A stretch of DNA of 62,740 nucleotides, the filler included, from Basidioascus undulatus (Eukaryota), in assembly GCA_000826855.1 (NCBI GenBank). It is 5 parts of 5 records of this genome, joined end to end, with 100 filler letters (N's around TTAATTAATTAA, not from the genome) between each part and the next. Parts side by side here need not be neighbours in the genome. Positions count along the whole stretch, not along the records: positions 1 to 12,478 come from JTLS01000903.1; 4 more parts are not named here. One strand, written 5' to 3'. Below, piece after piece: positions 1-56,215 of the stretch. The notes beneath the pieces were generated by a model. It was not told the origin of the DNA, searched no databases, and worked only from the letters and a program-made list of their open reading frames with translations. Position 1 is the first letter of the stretch. Every line of letters begins with the position of its first letter. Position numbers and translations under genes: made by a program.

Positions 1-83
1 ACCGGACGACGGGATCGGCGCGACTCCTCGCCCGCATCCTTCTTGGCTCCAGTCCCCCCACTTCACAGTTACCCTCGGCCACC

Positions 84-1252
84 ATGTCCGGATCCTTCTC
101 TCTCCCGCCGCTCAACTGGCTCGTCTCCCCACCGCCGTCGACGACGCCCAGTCCCCAAAACCCTACCACGGATCGCACGTACGTCGCGAGATGGCGCAGT
201 TGGGACGGAAGAAGGGGGGGCGGGGACGGAGCGTCATACTGACTCGGCCTTCCTTATCGCAGGAGCTCCGATGATCTCTCTCTGCCGGTGCAGCACGACG
301 AGCTCGCCAAGCAGCTCGAGCTGTGGGCAAATGTTCAGTTCAACTTTGACTCGTCCGATGCGCTCGGCTTTGCGCTCCCCGATGACGCGGGCAAGGAGGA
401 GACCGCGACGGAGCGGTGGGAGGGCGAGCAGCGCATCCAGCGCAGGCGCGACGAGCAGTCCCTCTCTCGCCGCATCTTCGACGCCCCTGCCGCCGAGGAC
501 GAGTCCTCGACCGCCGAGCCCGTCGTGCCCGGCAACACCCCCGCGCCCAGCGCGCACGACGACCTCTCCCACTTCTTCAGCCTGACTTCCGCCGCCGCTG
601 CCGCCTCCGTCCCGCTCGCGCCCGTCGACCCCGACAACGCCTCCGTCGACCCCTTCGCGTCCCTCGCGCTCTTCGCGCCGCACGCACCCGCGCCCGAGCT
701 CCCCCCCATCCAGGCCGAGTCGTCCCCGTCTGACGAGAAGGCGGAGGCCAAGTTGACGCCGGGTGCGGAGGAGGAGAACGATGAGGAGGACAAGCCCAAG
801 CAGAGCCGCCGCCGTCGCACCAAGAAGGTACCCCTCCCCCCTGTCGTCCCCCGCGCGGGCGAGACGATGGAGCAGGCGAAGGCGCGCATCGAGCGCGAGC
901 ACCGCGAGGCGGAGGAGGCGGCGAAGAGGGAGCTCGAGGAGGACAAGCGCCGGCGTAACACTGCTGCATCCGGTGCGTCTCCGTCTTCCTTTCCGTGATA
1001 CGCAGTTGGGGTTGCACCTGACAGTGGGCCGTGGGGGACACAGCTCGCTTCCGCGTGAAGAAGAAGGCGCGCGAGGCCGCGCTCGAGCAGACGGCCAACG
1101 AGCTGCAGGCGCGCGTGTCGGAGCTGGAGAAGGAGGTCGACGACCTGCGGAAGGAGAACGGCTGGCTCCGGGGGCTCATCGTCGGCGGCGCGCCGGCGCA
1201 CCCGCCGTCCGAAGACGACGACCAACCGTCCGCCAAGCGTGCCCGCGTCTGA
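84..1252 (+). CDS. bZIP transcription factor of the MetR/Cys3/Zip1 (sulfur regulator) family, 3 exons
   Basis: Exons 84-178, 262-972 and 1044-1252 with GT-AG introns. Splicing gives EEDKRRRNTAASARFRVKKKAREAALEQTANELQARVSELEKEVDDLRKENGWLRGLI (basic region plus leucine zipper). The N-terminal LELWANVQFNFD motif also fits this family. Confidence 0.85.
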
Positions 1253-2137
1253 TGGAAGGGCATGATGGATCCGGATCCCGTTCCCTCCCGCCCCCCTCAT
1301 ACCACCTCCTCTACCTTCCACCCCCCGGCTCTCCTCCCTATTGCCCCCCGTTCTCTCTTGCGCTTCTCTGCGCTTTTAAAAGGAACCCCTTCTTTCTCTG
1401 CGATTTACTACTACCCATGTTGTTACCGATTACTCCGCGGCGCTTATCCGCTTTAGGGCTTTATGCTTTCTTTCCTTCTTCTTCTGGCCTCTTGCATGCA
1501 TGAACTCCCATGGTTCCATACATTTTGATCATACACGCTGGTAGTGTGCACATTCTCGTCTGCTGCTGCTCCTCCATCGACCTGCGATTGCCAGCGTATC
1601 TGCCCCGGCTTCCGCTCTACCCGAGACTCCCCGCGCAATTTTTCATCCTCCGCAATTGCAGCCTGTCAAAAGCACGTATTTCCAGCACTGGGGCTCCAAT
1701 ATACGTCGGGCGTCTGTCATTCTGACTGAAATGCAGAGCCGCGCGGAAGCGCCGGATGCGCGGGTGAGAGCACGCAAGAGCGCTGCGGGAGCACGCCATC
1801 GCCACCCCTACGCGCTCCACTCGGCGGCTCGTTGGCGCTGCTCGGGCTGCCTTCAGGTCGACCGGTGCGGCTTCCATCCCATTCGGAGCGAACGAGGAAA
1901 ACAGGCCTAGTATTGTGCTCTCATTGGCTCGTCGGGGTATTGAGAGATAAGGAGAACCTTCTGAGGTGCACACGGGCCGGGGTAAGACCAGCAGCGAGGA
2001 GCACTTGAGGAGCACAGGAACTGAACAGCGGAGAGTAAGCCGGACGCACTGGGACGGTAGAGATAAAAATACAGGACATTGGGTATGGGGTCTGAAGGCG
2101 TATGAGGGTTTAAAAAAATCCTTCCAAGGAGAGGATC

Positions 2138-2143
2138 AAAAAA
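2138..2143 (-). terminator. RNA polymerase III T-run terminator downstream of the permuted tRNA
   Basis: TTTTTT on the minus strand directly after the 5' half, with a second T7 run at 2118-2112. Confidence 0.6.
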
Positions 2144-2144
2144 G

Positions 2145-2219
2145 TCGTAGTCAGATACTCTACCATTGAGCCAGCCGGCCTTGACCGACGCAGGGATCGA
2201 ACCTGCAACCCCCTGATCT
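2145..2219 (-). tRNA. Circularly permuted tRNA gene (3' half precedes 5' half); Trp-like body, anticodon ambiguous (Trp-CCA or Arg-ACG)
   Basis: Minus strand reads ATCAGG-GGGTT-GCAGG-TTCGATC-CCTGC-GTCGGTC-A (2217-2182, tRNA positions 38-73), then one A (2181), then GGCCGGC-TG-GCTC-AATGGTA-GAGT-A-TCTGA-CT-ACGA (2180-2145, positions 1-37). Acceptor, D, anticodon and T stems all pair across the halves. Confidence 0.75.
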
Positions 2220-2904
2220 CGACTACCACTCGCTCACACTTGTGGTAGGAGTCAAATTCCTAAAGACCTCTCTGAACAAATGCTGTTCCATCATTGTAAC
2301 ACGCTTTCTGCTACACGAGCCCTTGAATCTATACCTACGCATCCTGATACATTAAAGCTGCTATTTTAAAACGAGGATTAGCATTTCCAGTCCAACGAAC
2401 CGATATCTGCCCTTGGAGCCTTAGTCTGGCGGCTGGCACCCCTCGACCCCATCTCCGTTTACTCGCCTGCCCCTTCTTCAGCCTGAAAAGGCTTATTACG
2501 TAAAAGATCACAGTCCTGAGTTCATAACTCTCATTGGGCGGTGCGGCGCAGTTGGGTCGCGAGGCTCCAGTGGCAGTTTCAAGAGTCTTCGAACAAGCAC
2601 GGAGAGCTTGAGCCCGACCGTGTTAACAATAGATAATCAGAGTAGATCTACATTCGCTTGACCGTCCAGGTTGAGCAAAGCCCCTACTCAGACCATAGTC
2701 GACGGTTGGTCCTCTTTTCTCGTCTGGTCCACTCTTCTGGTACCTGGCCGTCTTTCTCGCGCAAGTCAACAAAATGCTCGTCCTGGTCAGTTCCGTTCGT
2801 ATAAAGAATGATCAGGATAGGTTTCTTCATATTTTCAAGTTCACGTCCAAGCTGGGACGCTGTTCAAAGCTTACAGCTCAAACTGCTTTGTAGCCTTATC
2901 TGTG

Positions 2905-3469
2905 GATGTTGTTGGAATACCATTTCTTGGGGCAACGGCTTCAACAGGTCCGCTTTGACTCTTACCCAATGTTACCTGAACATAGGCTGAGTTGATGCTT
3001 TATTTTCAGCTGGGGTTTCACGTCGTTCGAAGGCGATGGGAACGGCTTCAAGCTCAGCGGCGGCAACAAAGGCGACGTCGCGCCCGCTGCTCACGTTGTA
3101 ACAACAGCATCGCCTTCTCCAACGCCGCAGGCGGCTTTGTCGACAACTCGCAGCCCGGCGACATCCTGCTAACCCGGGACATCCCCTGGAACAACGGCGC
3201 CACCGGCTTCATGTTCACCACCGCGACTGCGACGCTGACCGACAATCTGCGACAATCTGGCTGCGTCGAACGCGGACGACGCGGTGTTGGGCGACCAGGT
3301 CGCGAGCAGCGAGGGGAACTCGTGGGACATCGGCGGGTCGTGGGGGAACAGCAGCTTCGCGATCATTGACCCGTCGGTGGTGACGGGGGCCAGGACTGCC
3401 AACGGCGACATTGTGGGGAACGATATCTTGGTTCCGGTTTCTGGGGATGCTATCGGAGCCAGGACGTAA
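2905..3469 (+). pseudogene. C-terminal fragment of a polysaccharide lyase family 9 (pectate lyase L-type) gene, frameshifted
   Basis: Reads NTISWGNGFN / intron 2948-3009 / WGFTSFEGDGNGFKLSGGN...AAHVV, frameshift near 3100, NSIAFSNAAGGFVDNSQPG...WNNGATGF, then a 10-nt tandem duplication (GACAATCTG at 3241-3260) shifts the frame again to ...GNSWDIGGSW...GDAIGART*. GDGNGFKL(G)GG is the PL9 catalytic-Lys motif. Confidence 0.75.
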
Positions 3470-4283
3470 CGTTGGGAACAGTATCGCTTCCGAGGCCGCA
3501 TTGATACTTGCAATTCGATTCTTATGCTCAATTGTCCGAAAAATTCCGTTGGCGAAATTTCGGCGGTCTAACTTGCAGCCTCCGACTGGTATGTGTGCCG
3601 CCACGCGATTGTGCGGTCCGCACTAGATCAGCAAGTCCGAGCTTTAGAGCAGCAAACATCACCACGCAGTCTTCCAATTACGACAGCTCCATGAATAGGC
3701 GTCCAAAGCGTACCAGAAGGTGGTTGAGTCGGTCGAAGTCTCTGCATTCGTCCTCGAGCGGTTCATTGGCCCCTGGACCCTTGATTATTTTCGCGCCTCC
3801 TCCTTGGACTGCAATTACAAAAGCAGCACTCAATGAAAAACCTCGGTTGGGGTTCTTCCAGATGAGGCGTATTCTCCTTAGCATTCGTTATCCGCGCATC
3901 GCCCTGTCTGCAGCGGGTAGACGCAGCCGCTACACGCAAGCTTATGAAGGGCTATCATTCCTGATGGATCATGACACCCCCCGATGCCTGTTGTCGGGCT
4001 GCTGTAATGGATACCCTGTCTGGTCACATCGTGGATGGTTGAGCGGACGGTGGAGTTCCACGGTGGGGAAGTGGCGAAGCCCTCAGAGGTGCATAGTCTG
4101 TCGATGTACCAGCGCCCTTTGCGCACCTTACCTTGTTAGCCGGTAGGCATTGCTGAGTTCACACTTCACTAATATGGGTGCAAAGGATAACGTATGAGGA
4201 GGGGGAAGTGCTAAGGCCATTCAGATTAACGCGAGCACCAGCGTTGTCACACTCGGACAGGTTAAAGCATTGCATGGTCCGCA

Positions 4284-5320
4284 TCAATCCGTCAGCTGTG
4301 GAGTGAAAGAAACCGCTGGGGTAGAAGGTCTCGATCCGGGCACCGGCGGAATCTCCGTCTTGAGCACCCTCGTTGCCTTCTTCTTCGGGACGGGAGCTGT
4401 ATCGCCACGTACTCAATGTCAGCTGAACAGCGGAAGGCGAGCCCGCGCATCAGCGACGTACCGTTTTGGTTTTCCGTCATATAGAATCGCCGCAGAAGCA
4501 TGATCGCTTCGTCCCGGTAATAGCCTCCCAAGGCGCAGTACGAGCGATGGGACGTCAAGTTCGGGCTGCGAAATGTGCGTCGGGTCAGAACACTTTGCGG
4601 CGTCGAAAGCCAATGTAGAAAGTTACTCGGCATTGATAGGGACAACCGATCCGCAGCCGCCAAACCGGTCATTCCCAGCACCATAGTAGACCTGCCCAAT
4701 GTTGACCTGCGAAAAGGACGTGCGTTCAACGTCGACATCAGACGACGATCAAAGGGGGATTCCGCTCACTTGTCTCAAAGCGCTCGCACACATGACGCAA
4801 GGCTCCACCGTCACATAGAGACTCGTCCGCTGAAGAATGTCGAGCGAGTTTTCGGCAAGGATGCTGGTGATCGCCTCGAGCTCGGCGTGCAAGGTTGCCT
4901 GCGAGCGGGGGCTCTTTAGCACAAAAGACGTGCGAACGGTTAGAGCTCTACACGCACATTCCTGAGCTCGTTCGTCCTGTTCCGCGCTCGCGCGATGCAC
5001 CGCCCTCTCCCGCCCGTCTCTTCGTAGAGCGGACATCCGGGAAGGCCGGGTTGCTCGACGAAAACGCATCCCACCGGGACTTCAGCGGCCCGGAAGGCTT
5101 CCTCCGCCTTGGCAAATTAAATAGTACGGTAAGAAACACGCGAGATGATGGTTCATCGATCGAAATCAAAGACGGTAAGAGGGGGCAAGAAAAGGGCCAA
5201 CTGGATCAGCTTGCCATCTCCCGCCGCAAGAGATTTTCTGGCACGCACCATTGCCAACGCCTCCCGCATCCAGTACTTGTCAACCTCAGCTTGTTCTTCC
5301 ACCGGAACGTAAGTAGCCAT
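4284..5320 (-). CDS. TAD2: tRNA-specific adenosine-34 deaminase catalytic subunit (Tad2/ADAT2), multi-exon
   Basis: Exons encode MATYVP...KYWMREALAM, AEEAFRAAEVPVGCVFV...ARNRTNE, HAELEA...LYVTVEPCVMCASALRQ (HAE and PCxxC zinc motifs) and GGYYRDEAIMLLRRFYMTENQNAPVPKKK. Stop at 4284-4286. Confidence 0.92.
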
Positions 5321-5456
5321 GTTTGTGAGTATCTGAGGTAGTGAGCAGATGAAGGTAGGAAGCGAGCGAAACCTCGAAGAACGCGCCCTCGAAAAGCATC
5401 CGGGCCGATCTCAGCCTCCTGCTCGTCGCGCTCCCTCTTGATCCTCAACCGTCAAC
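5321..5456. promoter_or_regulatory. Short divergent (probably bidirectional) promoter between TAD2 and MED10
   Basis: Only 136 bp separate the two head-to-head start codons. Confidence 0.5.
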
Positions 5457-6373
5457 ATGGCCCCTCCGCTCGCCTACTCTCCTCCCGCAGCAGCCTCACC
5501 GACCACTCCAGCATCCCTGTTTGGCGACGGCGACCCACCTTCAGAACCAGCGGAGCCCATCGATCCCGCAACTCTGCCGCCGGAGGGGCGTCTCGAGCTC
5601 GCGCTCAAGGAGCTCGCGCAGAGCTTGCTGGAGCTCGGCGTGTGCGCGACCGATGTGCAGCCGTCAGGAGAGGGAGTGGAGGGCATGAACGGGCATGCTG
5701 GAGGCCCGTCGAATGGGTTGCAGGACATGGGAGGGCTGGTGGGGAAGAAAGTGTGAGTAGCGTACCTCGTTCATGCACTGCTCTCGAGTCCTTGCAGGAA
5801 GTGGGCTTTGTACGGAAGGCACAGCGGAACTTACCGCCAGTACTCTCTGGGAGGTTCCTTGTGGATTGCGTGTACTGGTGTCTTGAGGCGTGCGGGCTTA
5901 CGCACTTCGGAGGACGACAGGCAGGACGTAACAACGCATCTTGGAACCCTGGACTCCTTGAAGTCCCAATTAGACACGTATATACCCCTCGACGTTATAC
6001 AGTACGTCTCTTTCCGTCGCTGACTCGCGCTGGCTTTGCGATCACTGACCCGCCCGATGCAGATCCATCGATCAAGGCCGAAATCCGGATCTCTACACGC
6101 GCGAGTTCATCGAGCGCGTGGCGGGCGAAAACATGTTTATGAATGGGAAGCTAGATGCGTTGGATGTGGGTCTTCTGTCCTTCCCCACCCTCATCATAGA
6201 TCCAGGCTGATGTTGACTGGGCGGAATAGGGGTACGAGGAGCTTCTGAGTTCCGCGCTGGCGGACAACTTTCCGGAACTGGCACCGCATATCGAGCCCCG
6301 CGAACATTCACCTTCGGGGCCGCCTGGGTCGGGTGGAGGTGCAGCGGATAGAAGAGTCAAGCATGAAGAATGA
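5457..6373 (+). CDS. MED10: Mediator complex subunit 10 (Med10/Nut2), multi-exon
   Basis: LELALKELAQSLLELGV..., IPLDVIQ / IDQGRNPDLYTREFIERVAGENMFMNGKLDA is the Med10 signature. Last exon ends RRVKHEE* at 6373. Confidence 0.88.
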
Positions 6374-37211: not shown

Positions 37212-37546
37212 GCTGCTAGGTTGGAGGTGCATGGCGGACCGGGAGACTGCGAGGACTTTGTGCGTGAAGGCAATGCTAGACTCAAGTTTGTTCGGAGGCA
37301 AACTATCACAGCCCGAGGTACCAGAAGTCCATTAAAAGCGATTTCGGTGGTGCTTTCCTGTGTCACTGTTCGGAACAAATGCTGCTACCGACAACATCAG
37401 TCAAGAAAGCGAGCAAACGCCTGATCAGTGGCTGCTTCAGAGAGGAGCATAGCAAGATCTGGAACCTGGGCCTACAGTTCAAAAAGGAAAGGAAGCTCAG
37501 TAAAGCGTGCAGGTGTAACACATGCAGTGTGTACTCGGCAAAAGTA

Positions 37547-37623
37547 TGACGAGAGTGGGATTCGAACCCACGCCCTTTCGGACCAGATCCTTAGTCTGGC
37601 GCCTTAGACCGCTCGGCCATCTC
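37547..37623 (-). tRNA. tRNA-Leu(AAG), intronless; first 3 nt cut off by the contig end
   Basis: Minus strand reads ...GAGATGGCCGAGCGGTCTAAGGCGCCAGA-CT-AAG-GA-TCTGG-TCCGAAAGGGC-GTGGGTTCGAATCCCAC-TCTCGTC-A, with a long variable arm. Confidence 0.93.
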
Positions 37624-37723
37624 NNNNNNNNNNNNNNNNNNNNNNNNNNNNNNNNNNNNNNNNNNNNTTAATTAATTAANNNNNNNNNNNNNNNNNNNNN
37701 NNNNNNNNNNNNNNNNNNNNNNN
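37624..37723. other. Artificial contig linker
   Basis: N44-TTAATTAATTAA-N44. Confidence 0.98.
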
Positions 37724-41799: not shown

Positions 41800-42611
41800 A
41801 TTTGCAGTGGATCTTACGTTGTGACCTCTATTTATTGGTATTGCCAATGCTGTCAGTCGGCATTGTCTTACACCTCAAGATTTCGACGCTTCGGAAAGCT
41901 TGCAGTCGGTGTGGATATACATACAGTGCAGTGACGACCATGCCTTAGGAAAAAACTTTCTATTGCCATACAGTGCAGAGGGGACAGCTGCAAGAACACA
42001 TGCATGCACGCGTTGTCGACCATTGCAGCGCAGGCTGCCCGTGCTCGCTGTGGTCGGTTCTTCGTGAGCTTGGGAATCATGTTTGGACGGTGGGATTTCG
42101 GTAAACATAAAGCCTCTCATTCTATGAAGGCACGCAAACACATGACCTGGTCATGTGTACCACAATCCTCACAAAGAGTGTTTAATCAGAACACCGTTCA
42201 GTCGAGCCCAGGACGGTGACAACAACCAAGCCCAGTCCCAAGACCTATTAACGAGCAGCAATTTTTGCATGAGTAATATGTTGCTGCAATGTACATCTTT
42301 GAGGTGCAGACCTCGTGAAAACCGCAAAATAACGCTGCACATGAAACTGGACTGTTGAGGCTGCGCTTGGAAGGTGCCGATCGGGACTCGGGGCGCTAAG
42401 CCGATGTCGATCACGAAGACGCGAGATTTCGGGACGACCCCCCGCATCTGCCTCCTGCCATCGTCTTCTCTACTGTGTGATTGCTCAGCTCCAGCTCGCC
42501 AGCGCGGCCGCCCCATTGCGGTCGGTCAATTACCAACGAATACCACCCACATCACCATCGGTTCCCAATTCCTCTCTATCTCCGTCGACGCCGACACCAC
42601 CGCTGCCGACG

Positions 42612-44423
42612 ATGACCTCCCCGACGCGCCACCTGCACGCCCTCCCGCCCGCGTCGCTCTCCCCGCCCGCGCACCCGCTCCCGTCGACCCACTTCCTCTC
42701 CATCCAGCAGCCCTCCGTCACCGCCGTCGCCGCAGAGAACGTTCCGCCCACGTCCACCCTCGCGGGAGCCGACTTTGACGTCGACGTTCGCTCGGGGTTC
42801 TTGCCCCCTGAGGAGCCTTTGCGGAGGCTTGGCGGCGAGTGGGAGGTCTGGGAGAGTGCGCTTGGCGCCGCGATGGAGGGTGCGGTTAGCTTGCATGGCG
42901 TTTCCGGGGACGGGGAGCAGTGGAGGAGGGCTGTTAGAGAGGTGAGTCCTGGATCTTGAGCAGTCTGCATGAGCGGTGGCGGGGAGTACATTGGTCGCGT
43001 GATGCGTCCTCGCCGACGTTGTCACAGCGCCTTCTTGCGCTCCAGTACCTCTCCAGCGACCGCGCCGTCTTCTGTTTTTATTTCCGGCCCTGCATTCCCT
43101 GTGACCCTATCTAGGAGCCCGAGACACTGACGCCTGTCCTCCCTCAACAGATGCCCATCATCCCCACCCCGCCTGCCTCGCACGACATCCGCCCCCTCCG
43201 GCGCGCCTACACGGTGCTTTCCTTCCTCGCACACTTCTACGTGCACTCCTCGCCCGCGTCACCCAGTCCGTCCGAAGACCCCACCGGCGGTCCGGCCGGG
43301 ATCGTCCCGCGCTCGCTTTCCTTGCCGTGGATGGACGCCGCGAGCCGCCTCGGCCTGCCGCCCGTCCTCACCTATGCGGCAACGGTGCTCTGGAACTGGG
43401 CGTATCGGGACCCGGCGAAGGGGTATACTATCGAGTGCGTGGCTCCGGGATTGATTGCGTAGGTGCAGGCAACCTGACGCGCAGACTTGGGTGGACACAG
43501 CAACCTCTACTCGCCCATCACCTTCACACGCACGCCCTCGGAGCAGCACTTTTACCTCACCTCGGCCATAATCGAGTCTCAGGGCGTGCCGGCCCTTCGC
43601 CTGATGTCCGCCTCCATGGACGAAGCCTTCCTGGCCGACCTCTCCCCGTCGATCTCCTTCCCGCGCATCGCCTCGCACCTGCGCGCGCTCGCGTCGCACA
43701 TCGACACGCTCACCGCAACAATGTCGCACATGCGCGACGCGTGCGATCCCCCGACGTTCTACCACCTCATCCGGCCGTGGTTCAACGGGCCGAACGGGGC
43801 CGCGCCCGGGCGCGGGTGGGCGTACGAGGGCGCGGACGCCCCCGGGGTGACGCGTGCGTACGGCGGCCCGAGCGCCGGGCAGAGCTCGCTCGTTCATGCG
43901 CTTGATGCGTTCTTGAGCGTCGACCATGCGCCCCTGGAGGGCGGGGCGGGATACGACGACACGTTTATGCGGAGGATGCAGGCGTACATGCCCGCGCCGC
44001 ATAGGGAGTTCTTGACGCATCTGTTGGAGAACCCTACGCCGATTAAGGGGGTGGTGATGGGCAGCGGGGATGAGGGGCTCAAGATGGCGTATAACGAGAG
44101 CGTCCAGGCTATGAAGCGGTTTAGGGACGAGCACATCCGAATAGCGACGCTTTATGGTGCGTCGTCGTCTCCTCCTTCTCCATCTCCTACCTCTCATTCT
44201 TCTTCCCTCGTCTCCTTCCCTTCCCCTGCTTTACCCCCCTTTGCTGACCTGTTGGGACCCTCCACGCACAGTCGTCACCCAAGCGCGCGCCGCGCACCGC
44301 CAGCCCGCGGGCGACCACATCGGCGAGGTCGAGGCCGAGGTCAAGGGCACGGGCGGGACCGCGCTCGTGCGCTTCCTCAAGATGTGCCGGGACCGAACGA
44401 CAGACGCGCTCGTCCACATCTGA
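42612..44423 (+). CDS. Indoleamine 2,3-dioxygenase (Bna2-like), multi-exon
   Basis: DFDVDVRSGFLPP, LRRAYTVLSFLAHFYVH, LGLPPVLTYAATVLWNW, CDPPTFYHLIRPW, GPSAGQSSLVHALD, MQAYMPAPHREFL, FRDEHIRIATLY (proximal His) and KGTGGT. Confidence 0.95.
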
Positions 44424-44799
44424 TCCCGCCTCTTCTCCCTCCTCCTCCGCCGCCCCTCGTCCCGCTTTGCCCACTTCTTTCTCTGTCCGCCGCATCTTCT
44501 CGCCGCCCCGCTTATACTTTAAGCCTTCATTTTTTTGTTTCTCGTCCCGCATTTTCCCCCGCATGCCTAGAGCGCTCACCCACTTCGATGACGACTTCGC
44601 ACGACCCCGTTATGACCCACCCGCCACCTTTTGCATCTTTTTTCCCCTTTTCTCTTTCGATGAGCTGAGCTCGCAAGTCGCGCGAGCGCTCGTAGTTGTA
44701 CTCCTGTAATTTGGCTAGATCTGTATTGCATTGGCTTGGAGCTTGGAACAGATAACGTCTGCCTCGGAGTTGCCGATAGCGTTTGTCGCTTATGCTATC

Positions 44800-56130: not shown

Positions 56131-56215
56131 TGGCCACTGCAGGGGTCGAACCTGCGACTTTGGAGTCTCAACTCGTTTATTAGCTCCACACTCTAACCAA
56201 CTGAGTTAAGCGGCC
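56131..56215 (-). tRNA. tRNA-Ile(AAT) with an 11-nt canonical intron (56167-56177)
   Basis: GGCCGCT-TA-ACTC-AGTTGGTTA-GAGT-G-TGGAG-CT-AAT-A-[AACGAGTTGAG]-A-CTCCA-AAGTC-GCAGG-TTCGACC-CCTGC-AGTGGCC-A, followed by T-runs. Confidence 0.95.

Follow-up and report, generated by a model that had tools for sequence, protein, structure and literature searches.

In the parts of the 2014 review that are cited here, 34 permuted tRNA genes are counted from six algae and one archaeon, and most eukaryotes are described as being without them (PMC3978253). The known permuted genes exhibit type II junctions and a downstream T-stretch, and their maturation is performed by endonuclease, ligase, RNase P, and tRNase Z, as outlined in the same review (PMC3978253). 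The origin models that it presents are tandem duplication with loss of the outer halves and reverse transcription of permuted or circular pre-tRNAs. Auxenochlorella was added in 2025 according to the cited part of that report (PMC12636532). In the cited parts of a 2026 review, permuted tRNAs are still named from algae and archaea only, and the cited parts of the tRNAscan-SE 2.0 paper mention permuted tRNAs for archaea only.

The locus that is described here lies on the minus strand of a window from Basidioascus undulatus. The window is the whole stretch of DNA that was analysed (62,740 nucleotides, filler included). At the locus a complete tRNA-Arg(ACG) is genuinely circularly permuted, with the break at 37/38, the canonical intron site. 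The locus belongs to a dispersed family of many copies and is not a single odd gene. The initial annotation of this DNA had stated that no permuted tRNA gene was known from fungi, and this agrees with the open full-text papers listed in the literature searches, whose titles and abstract openings gave no fungal case. Descriptions of the permuted layout have so far come from a few algae and one archaeon only. The main new result here is its occurrence at many loci.

Host genome and layout of the locus

The genome had been called fungal, and the exons in the window do match basidiomycete proteins best. The IDO exon exhibits about 50% identity to Tulasnella and Hydnum, which are its best matches. 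The Serinc exon exhibits 60-68% identity across Agaricomycotina, Ustilaginomycotina, and Tremellomycetes, with the maximum of 68% in Calocera. The host is a basidiomycete that has no close sequenced relative in the protein collection compared, and these matches and the protein domains of the window reject an algal origin. The window is an ordinary intron-rich piece of eukaryotic chromosome with eIF2B, thiolase, RasGAP, Serinc, BRO1/ALIX, F-box, IDO, and SNase domains. It also has a linear tRNA-Ile(AAU) gene (56215-56131) with a genuine 11-nt intron that ends in GAG|A38, and a tRNA-Leu gene. The eight N runs in the window are 44-nt masks and are far from the locus. The reading frames that adjoin the locus (1-6139) gave no Pfam family. 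A scan for sigma-70 promoters and intrinsic terminators gave 0 sites; these are bacterial models that are irrelevant to a eukaryote.

The features of the locus and its surroundings are as follows.

2252..2266, minus strand: patch with a modest AT excess, located 18-32 nt ahead of the conserved leader; the sole TATA-like candidate, a putative assignment
2218..2234, minus strand: intron-like leader that ends in GAG directly before position 38, with complementarity to the anticodon loop and to the trailer's first bases
2182..2217, minus strand: 3' half of tRNA-Arg(ACG), positions 38-73, with the 3' strand of the anticodon stem, variable loop, T arm, 3' strand of the acceptor stem, and discriminator A73
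2203-2194, minus strand: B box, inside the T arm of the 3' half
2181..2181, minus strand: one-base intervening sequence (A) that separates A73 from G1, ungapped in the junction-spanning contigs
2145..2180, minus strand: 5' half of tRNA-Arg(ACG), positions 1-37, with the 5' strand of the acceptor stem, D arm, 5' strand of the anticodon stem, and the loop with anticodon ACG and A37
2173-2163, minus strand: A box, inside the D arm of the 5' half
2138..2144, minus strand: trailer made of C and T6, probably an RNA polymerase III terminator; the unit common to the copies ends here
2112..2118, minus strand: second run of T (T7), 19 bases beyond T6, a possible back-up terminator that is specific to this locus; also seen as a direct repeat

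Read on the minus strand, the sequence bears out the order that had been proposed for the two halves and their coordinates: positions 38-73 (2217-2182) come ahead of positions 1-37 (2180-2145), with the single A (2181) between them. The T6 run (2143-2138) that had been placed after position 37 is present as well. It does not follow immediately as had been claimed, since a C at 2144 between A37 and T6 had been overlooked. The leader sequence ahead of the 3' half is ...GGTAGTCGAG, with its last base at 2218. The 3' half is directly ahead of the 5' half on the same strand, and the short spacer between them has no promoter or terminator, which is the arrangement of a type II permuted gene in the sense of Soma et al.

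The in-silico rearrangement that had been suggested as a check was performed by swapping the halves in a script, and ARAGORN calls the rejoined halves tRNA-Arg(ACG), with anticodon ACG and a perfect cloverleaf. The pairing that had been read from the sequence holds for every stem: acceptor 7/7 with two G-U pairs, D 4/4, anticodon 5/5, and T 5/5. One G-U pair is located in the D stem and one in the anticodon stem. The bases listed as invariant were found in place (U8, A14, G18G19, U33, and the T loop TTCGATC), and the A15-U48 pair is also present. The rejoined halves thus form a canonical cloverleaf with eukaryotic invariant bases, as type II permuted genes do.

In its native order the locus is seen neither by ARAGORN nor by the Rfam tRNA model, just as the initial annotation had expected of standard scanners. 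The sole Rfam match in native order is YrlA (RF02553), a bacterial Y-RNA-like RNA whose tRNA-like module is permuted too, with a full-length alignment and 38.4 bits against a gathering score of 69 (E-value 8.7e-7 locally and 6.8e-5 window-wide). The statement that neither half belongs to a linear gene also stands, with no normal-order pair of A box and B box and no tRNA model match within 1800-2600.

The chance of such a layout was controlled by applying the 36|1|36 swap to every N-free 73-nt word on the two strands of the window and running ARAGORN on the constructs. The 123,958 constructs gave 16 tRNA calls, every one of them at offsets within 2142-2221, and zero calls elsewhere in the window. 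A motif scan for a B box followed by an A box found two sites in the window, and only the site at this locus is tRNA-like.

Dispersed copies of the permuted unit

The contigs of two genomic read sets (X1 and X2) were aligned to 2040-2340 at 85% likeness; both sets are perhaps source data of the window and are not independent for that reason. The permuted unit is matched by 80 of the 24,453 contigs in X1 and by 74 of the 16,194 contigs in X2. The single-copy flanks of the locus are covered once, at a depth of 13-18 in X1 and 52-58 in X2. One contig of 56 nt is identical to 2156-2211; it starts in the T arm, crosses A73-A-G1, ends in the D arm, and has a depth of 175 in X1 and 473 in X2. The depth of the junction-spanning contig is about tenfold that of the flanking contigs, as contig depth that gives no exact copy number. 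X1 also contains a 53-nt variant contig with one mismatch at a depth of 298.

Other copies are diverged and collinear, with flanks of their own. They align without gaps to 2138-2220 (6 differences), 2137-2188 (4), 2156-2212 (4), and 2201-2246 (5). In X1, 33 of the 80 pieces (21 + 11 + 1) are below 99% likeness.

The contigs from other loci leave the window at two boundaries. On the T-run side other loci diverge at 2137-2140; the boundary at 2137-2139 is shared by 8 contigs in X1 and 8 in X2, and the boundary at the leader (2227, 2230, 2231, and 2234) by 9 contigs in X1 and 6 in X2. The 10 nt of the leader at 2227-2218 are common to all copies seen, and up to 17 nt are common to a subfamily. 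Beyond the boundaries the loose ends of these contigs agree poorly among themselves (0.5-0.75), and the flanks of the copies are therefore unrelated. The 22 remaining loose ends equal in number the leftover contigs, 13 in X1 (30 minus 17) and 9 in X2 (23 minus 14); therefore, if each contig has only one loose end, there is no third boundary with two or more contigs. The unit common to the loci consists of the leader, the 3' half, one A, the 5' half, C, and the T run, which is what a permuted gene needs and nothing more.

We read the contig data as at least 8 further loci, with roughly 10-30 near-identical copies in addition to the diverged ones. Every copy seen is in the permuted order, and nothing in the contigs of X1 and X2 points to a linear multi-copy gene that has the same body. 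Such linear genes would be expected to give a shared boundary at G1 or A73, and none is present among the contig boundaries. Joints in linear order are also absent among the contig joints, a weak blank given that pieces with fewer than 31 letters on a side are unlisted, as is a two-piece contig of X3.

No single contig of X1 or X2 spans 2040-2340. The flank contigs of the locus itself stop at 2165/2166 and at 2205. The left one includes the T run and positions 37-16, and the right one the leader and positions 38-50. Such breaks inside the unit are expected of a repeat that exceeds the word length of the assembler.

A third read set (X3), which comes from the same sample as X2 and whose kind of data is a guess, contains next to none of the 1-kb stretch and yet has four contigs on the unit. 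Among the sequencing runs listed for the stretch, none is recorded as RNA, a blank that carries no weight for expression. Exact matches to short pieces of the locus were searched for in three collections that contain little fungal DNA, so that the blanks carry no information on the distribution of the unit. Metagenome contigs had 0 matches to a 27-nt piece from the 3' half and to a 29-nt piece from the 5' half, prokaryote genome contigs had 0 to the latter piece, and viral contigs had 0 to a 29-nt piece across the junction.

Putative maturation and rival explanations

The leader can pair with the end of the unit. An inverted repeat (2143-2152 and 2221-2230, 90% complementary) joins the leader to the anticodon loop and trailer. 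The leader duplex has an energy of -10.4 kcal/mol, which is reached by 0.2% of 17,789 17-mers of the window and by 1.1% of 5,000 shuffles. The best predicted fold with the cloverleaf enforced (-29.4 kcal/mol) has A38 bulged, the pairs G-1:C32 and A-2:U33, A34 bulged, and five pairs from G-3:C35 to A-7:U+2. The predicted fold of the tRNA-Ile(AAU) intron in the window exhibits the same A38 bulge, C32:G-1, and U33:A-2, followed by a helix over the anticodon. Because the GAG|A38 context and the predicted fold both match that intron, the leader looks like the 3' part, or the whole, of an intron of this organism. In Cryptococcus, also a basidiomycete, tRNA introns are very common and occur in 132 of 143 tRNA genes, as the cited part of that study gives it (PMC4090602). 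The hexamer TGGTAG occurs in both the leader and the D loop of tRNA-Arg(ACG). In the window copy, only this hexamer and a loose resemblance to an A box would support the leader as a decayed D arm of an upstream copy; of the 15 nt that precede it, 4 agree by eye with the 5' half.

In a type II gene, leader and trailer are expected to form a bulge-helix-bulge (BHB) or its relaxed hBH variant at 37/38 for the splicing endonuclease. A strict BHB was not found in the predicted folds. The canonical 4-bp helix has one U-C mismatch and is unfavoured, at -19.9 kcal/mol versus -21.3 kcal/mol without the helix. In the unconstrained minimum-energy fold the anticodon stem is broken in favour of a longer leader helix, and the fold is a long stem that is capped by the T arm, a closed acceptor hairpin, and the D arm. 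The 5' cut site is located inside a predicted helix, near the 3' end of the precursor. According to the cited part of the 2014 review, eukaryotic endonucleases measure from the mature domain, and what they chiefly require is the anticodon-intron pair together with a bulge at the 3' site (PMC3978253); the predicted precursor is a plausible substrate of the splicing endonuclease for this reason.

The T6 that lies one base past A37 is a good candidate for the stop of RNA polymerase III (Pol III). The start of transcription is the weak point of reading the locus as a working gene. Fungi normally depend on TFIIIC, and the B box precedes the A box at this locus. In the part of the review that deals with this order, it is called unsuitable for TFIIIC, and algal permuted genes are thought to rely on upstream TATA-like boxes (PMC3978253). 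A type II gene is expected to have its TATA-like promoter within about 50 bp upstream. Clear AT-rich boxes are present upstream of the tRNA-Ile and tRNA-Leu genes of the window, and the patch at the permuted copy (2266-2252) is weaker.

We give about an even chance to the reading of these loci as a multi-copy family of working permuted tRNA-Arg(ACG) genes (type II, junction 37/38) that would be spliced via a 73-nt circle. Pol III would start at about 2234 or a few bases upstream and stop in T6. The precursor would consist of the leader, positions 38-73, A, positions 1-37, C, and a U-tail. Its body would adopt the normal L shape, with a tiny loop that closes the acceptor stem, and the leader would pair with the anticodon loop in the manner of a tRNA intron. 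The splicing endonuclease would cut before A38 and after A37, with loss of the leader and trailer, and a fungal Trl1-type ligase would join A37 to A38 into the 73-nt circle. RNase P and tRNase Z (or a 3' exonuclease) would then cut the circle open at the acceptor end and take out the single A. CCA would be added, and A34 would be deaminated to inosine. A unit that begins with an intron-like leader and ends at A37 would fit an origin by tandem duplication with loss of the outer halves, or by reverse transcription of a permuted or circular intron-containing precursor.

The codons CGT, CGC, and CGA are read by tRNA-Arg(ICG). They make up 156 of the 244 arginine codons in the stop-free, Pfam-supported frames of the window, a crude count in which exon limits are not set. 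From this share, the genome must hold several working genes for the tRNA-Arg(ICG) isoacceptor. Judged from these sequences, the permuted family probably supplies the main arginine tRNA of the fungus. The fuller proposal is that in this deep-branching basidiomycete every gene for the major arginine tRNA (ACG, read as ICG) is permuted, in roughly 10-30 near-identical Pol III copies whose transcripts would be cut by Sen, closed into a 73-nt ring by a Trl1-type ligase, and reopened across the one-base spacer; we regard it as tentative and as slightly more doubtful than probable. The one-base spacer forces a very tight acceptor loop, and the diverged members of the family look like decaying copies, both of which count against working genes.

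The presence of a multi-copy family removes an unconserved relic and a misassembly of this locus as explanations of the layout, and it opens a new rival in the form of a tRNA-derived repeat that has spread on its own. A tandem tRNA duplication that left a one-off relic here, or an artefact of assembly, would agree with the standard origin model of tandem duplication with outer-half loss in the cited part of the review (PMC3978253) and with the lack of a single spanning contig. However, the junction-spanning sequence is found letter for letter and at high depth in contigs from two runs, both boundaries recur at at least 8 other loci, and the contigs break as a repeat would make them break. This explanation is largely refuted for the layout and hardly credible overall. 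We consider a selfish or dead tRNA-derived dispersed repeat (SINE-like or retro-copied pseudogenes) unlikely, although it has to be taken seriously. A permuted transcript, or a circular or tandem intermediate, would have been copied back without giving a working tRNA. Such a repeat would be multi-copy and dispersed with unrelated flanks, as is found here, and it would account for the sizeable share of diverged members (33 of 80 X1 pieces below 99%, contigs with 4-6 differences in 46-83 nt) and for the summed depth within the unit that is far above that of the flanks. The unit also begins near a possible transcription start and ends in a Pol III U-tail as a retro-copy would, and reverse transcription of permuted or circular pre-tRNAs is among the origin models in the cited part of the review (PMC3978253). 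Basidiomycete tRNA-like sequences have been amplified to hundreds of copies, as stated in the cited part of that work (PMC10886601). Measured against the hallmarks of tRNA-derived SINEs, the many dispersed copies are found here, whereas the A-before-B head is absent, there is neither a tRNA-unrelated body nor an A-rich or LINE-like tail, and this copy has no target-site duplication. The order of the two boxes is not that of a self-contained SINE promoter. All 5' boundaries lie inside a stretch of 8 nt (2227-2234), unlike the scatter that 5' truncation gives, and the putative linear multi-copy tRNA-Arg(ACG) parent left no shared contig boundary. The cloverleaf is flawless in the window copy and in the most abundant junction contig.

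A tRNA look-alike that is transcribed by Pol III and has a role outside decoding, either a closed-acceptor mimic (a YrlA-like module) or a source of a 5' tRNA half that ends at A37, is rather improbable. YrlA is the only Rfam match and aligns over its full length, the minimum-energy fold is the long stem with T arm, closed acceptor hairpin, and D arm, and the terminator follows right after position 37. However, the score of 38.4 bits versus 69 rests on the tRNA-like arms with several non-pairs in the outer stem, YrlA is bacterial, and we know of no Ro60-type partner in these fungi. A mimic needs neither an intact anticodon loop, an exact break at 37/38, nor a full acceptor stem, and dozens of copies would be unusual for such RNAs. 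A solo LTR or fragment of a Helenus-type TRIM that carries a tRNA-like promoter is very improbable. According to the cited part of their description (PMC10886601), these elements are present in Pucciniales and in some of the Agaricomycetes; they raise the counts of tRNA-like sequences and leave solo LTRs behind. The permuted unit is multi-copy too. Their tRNA-like parts were found by tRNAscan-SE and are hence in linear order (PMC10886601, in the same part), whereas the order here is permuted. This copy also has no TG...CA ends and no 5-bp target-site duplication, and no second copy, primer-binding site, or polypurine tract is present nearby, with a single unit in 62.7 kb. The similarity between loci stops at the T run and the leader.

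Significance and comparison with known systems

If the family is what the layout suggests, it would extend permuted tRNAs beyond algae and archaea for the first time and would be their first multigene family. Its spread would imply that permuted genes can multiply, perhaps via retro-copies of their own precursor as in the origin models by reverse transcription. If the genes work, the ordinary opisthokont machinery (Sen complex, Trl1, RNase P, tRNase Z, and TFIIIC/TFIIIB) would cope with a permuted layout, and a fungal study system with Trl1-type ligation would be available. Working genes would also be a test case for the start of Pol III on a gene with the B box before the A box and for the opening by RNase P of a ring with a one-base spacer. 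They would warn that censuses of fungal tRNAs by standard finders can miss a whole isoacceptor. If the family is a selfish repeat instead, it would be a new architecture of tRNA-derived element.

The bacterial YrlA (RF02553) shares with the locus the order of T arm, closed acceptor-like hairpin, D arm, and enclosing stem. It differs in that at the locus the anticodon loop is complete and the two halves of a real tRNA are kept in full, and the score to the YrlA model is below threshold. The tRNA-derived SINEs are likewise tRNA-related and of Pol III type, with many dispersed copies that have unrelated flanks. SINEs have an A box before a B box in the head, a tRNA-unrelated body, a tail, and flanking target-site duplications; none of these hallmarks was seen at the permuted locus. 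The Helenus TRIMs amplify tRNA-like sequences in Basidiomycota, and some of these could encode tRNA, as the cited part of their description states (PMC10886601). The features of their own that it lists are linear tRNA order, LTR pairs, a primer-binding site, a polypurine tract, and 5-bp target-site duplications (PMC10886601), none of which was found here.

The permuted tRNA-Tyr(GTA) gene of Thermofilum pendens (Chan et al. 2011, as the review summarises it), which is presumed essential, has the only 1-nt intervening sequence known in the cited part of the 2014 review, the same length as here (PMC3978253). It differs from the locus in its junction at 59/60, encoded CCA, archaeal endonuclease and promoter, and single copy, as given in the same part (PMC3978253).

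The algal type II genes were described from Ostreococcus, Micromonas, the Bigelowiella natans nucleomorph, and Cyanidioschyzon merolae (PMC3978253) and from Auxenochlorella (PMC12636532). In the cited parts of these sources they are similar to the locus in the order with the 3' half first on one strand and in the break at the canonical intron site. They are also similar in a leader that could pair across the junction, the T-stretch past the 5' half, the CCA that is not encoded, and the ordinary eukaryotic tRNA body (PMC3978253, cited part). The trailer here is merely C and a U-tail, and this copy has no clear TATA-like box, in which it differs from the algal genes. Ligation here would need a Trl1-type enzyme, since fungi are without an RtcB-type ligase in the cited part of the source (PMC4090602). 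The intervening sequence of eukaryotic permuted genes is 5-74 nt in the range given by the review, whereas it is 1 nt here (PMC3978253, cited part). The algal genes are tabulated there as single entries except for two C. merolae tRNA-Gly(CCC) genes (PMC3978253), whereas the permuted genes here form a dispersed family. The hosts of the type II genes are algae, and the host here is a fungus (Opisthokonta).

Contig depth and a contig that repeats part of the permuted unit

The permuted tRNA-Arg(ACG) unit lies on the minus strand, where a leader (2234-2218) is followed by the 3' half (2217-2182), a single spacer A (2181) and the 5' half (2180-2145). Summed contig depth across 2139-2226 is uneven: over the two acceptor strands and the spacer it is about half of that over either the D/anticodon arm or the T arm. 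The summed depths in the genomic read set X1 are approximately 4,600 and 3,700-4,100 for the D/anticodon arm and T arm, respectively, versus 1,900-2,100 for the acceptor strands and spacer. This unevenness may reflect a different acceptor stem or spacer in part of the family, or a partial copy in a high-copy replicon.

A 93-nt contig of X3, a third data set from the same sample as the genomic read set X2, was placed on 2145-2222. This contig runs from 2189 to 2160 and then from 2222 to 2160, where D-arm bases ending in AATGGTAG are directly followed by TCGAG and the 3' half, with a period of 63 nt. Possible explanations are a partial unit in tandem, an ancestral form that was longer and in which the leader is what remains of a D arm, or an artefact of copying at TGGTAG, the hexamer common to the leader and D loop. 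X3 consists of 15.7 Mb in 36,764 contigs with uneven depths; this size and unevenness would be compatible with a transcriptome as well.

Within 2107-2146, the two terminator regions (GAC-T6-GATCC and GAT-T7-AAACC on the minus strand) repeat each other directly over 14 nt with 79% identity. A small palindrome, TCCTTGGAAGGA, lies ahead of T7. The paired T-run regions may represent a terminator duplication or may have arisen by chance.

Other tRNA genes of the window

37546-37627, minus strand, tRNA-Leu(AAG) gene, first bases overlapping a 44-nt N mask (37624-37667)
56131-56215, minus strand, tRNA-Ile(AAU) gene, 11-nt intron at 37/38, Rfam match of 54 bits

Upstream of the tRNA-Leu(AAG) gene, TTAATTAATTAA is flanked by two N masks.

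The tRNA-Ile(AAU) gene served as the comparison for intron structure within the window. It was not called by ARAGORN at default settings. A clear AT-rich box lies about 14-29 nt upstream of the gene, and an interrupted T-run follows it downstream. The first seven bases of the 17-nt leader (2218-2234) and of the tRNA-Ile intron (56168-56178) are identical at six positions on their minus strands, and both sequences end in GAG at the 3' end. This likeness may reflect splice-site constraints that act on both in this organism, or chance.

Lineage of the host

42345-44665, plus strand, indoleamine 2,3-dioxygenase gene, interrupted by introns

The proteins nearest to this indoleamine 2,3-dioxygenase share only about 50% identity with it, and the identity of Serinc to known proteins reaches at most 68%. 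Taken together, these values suggest that the host belongs to a basidiomycete lineage sparsely covered in protein collections.
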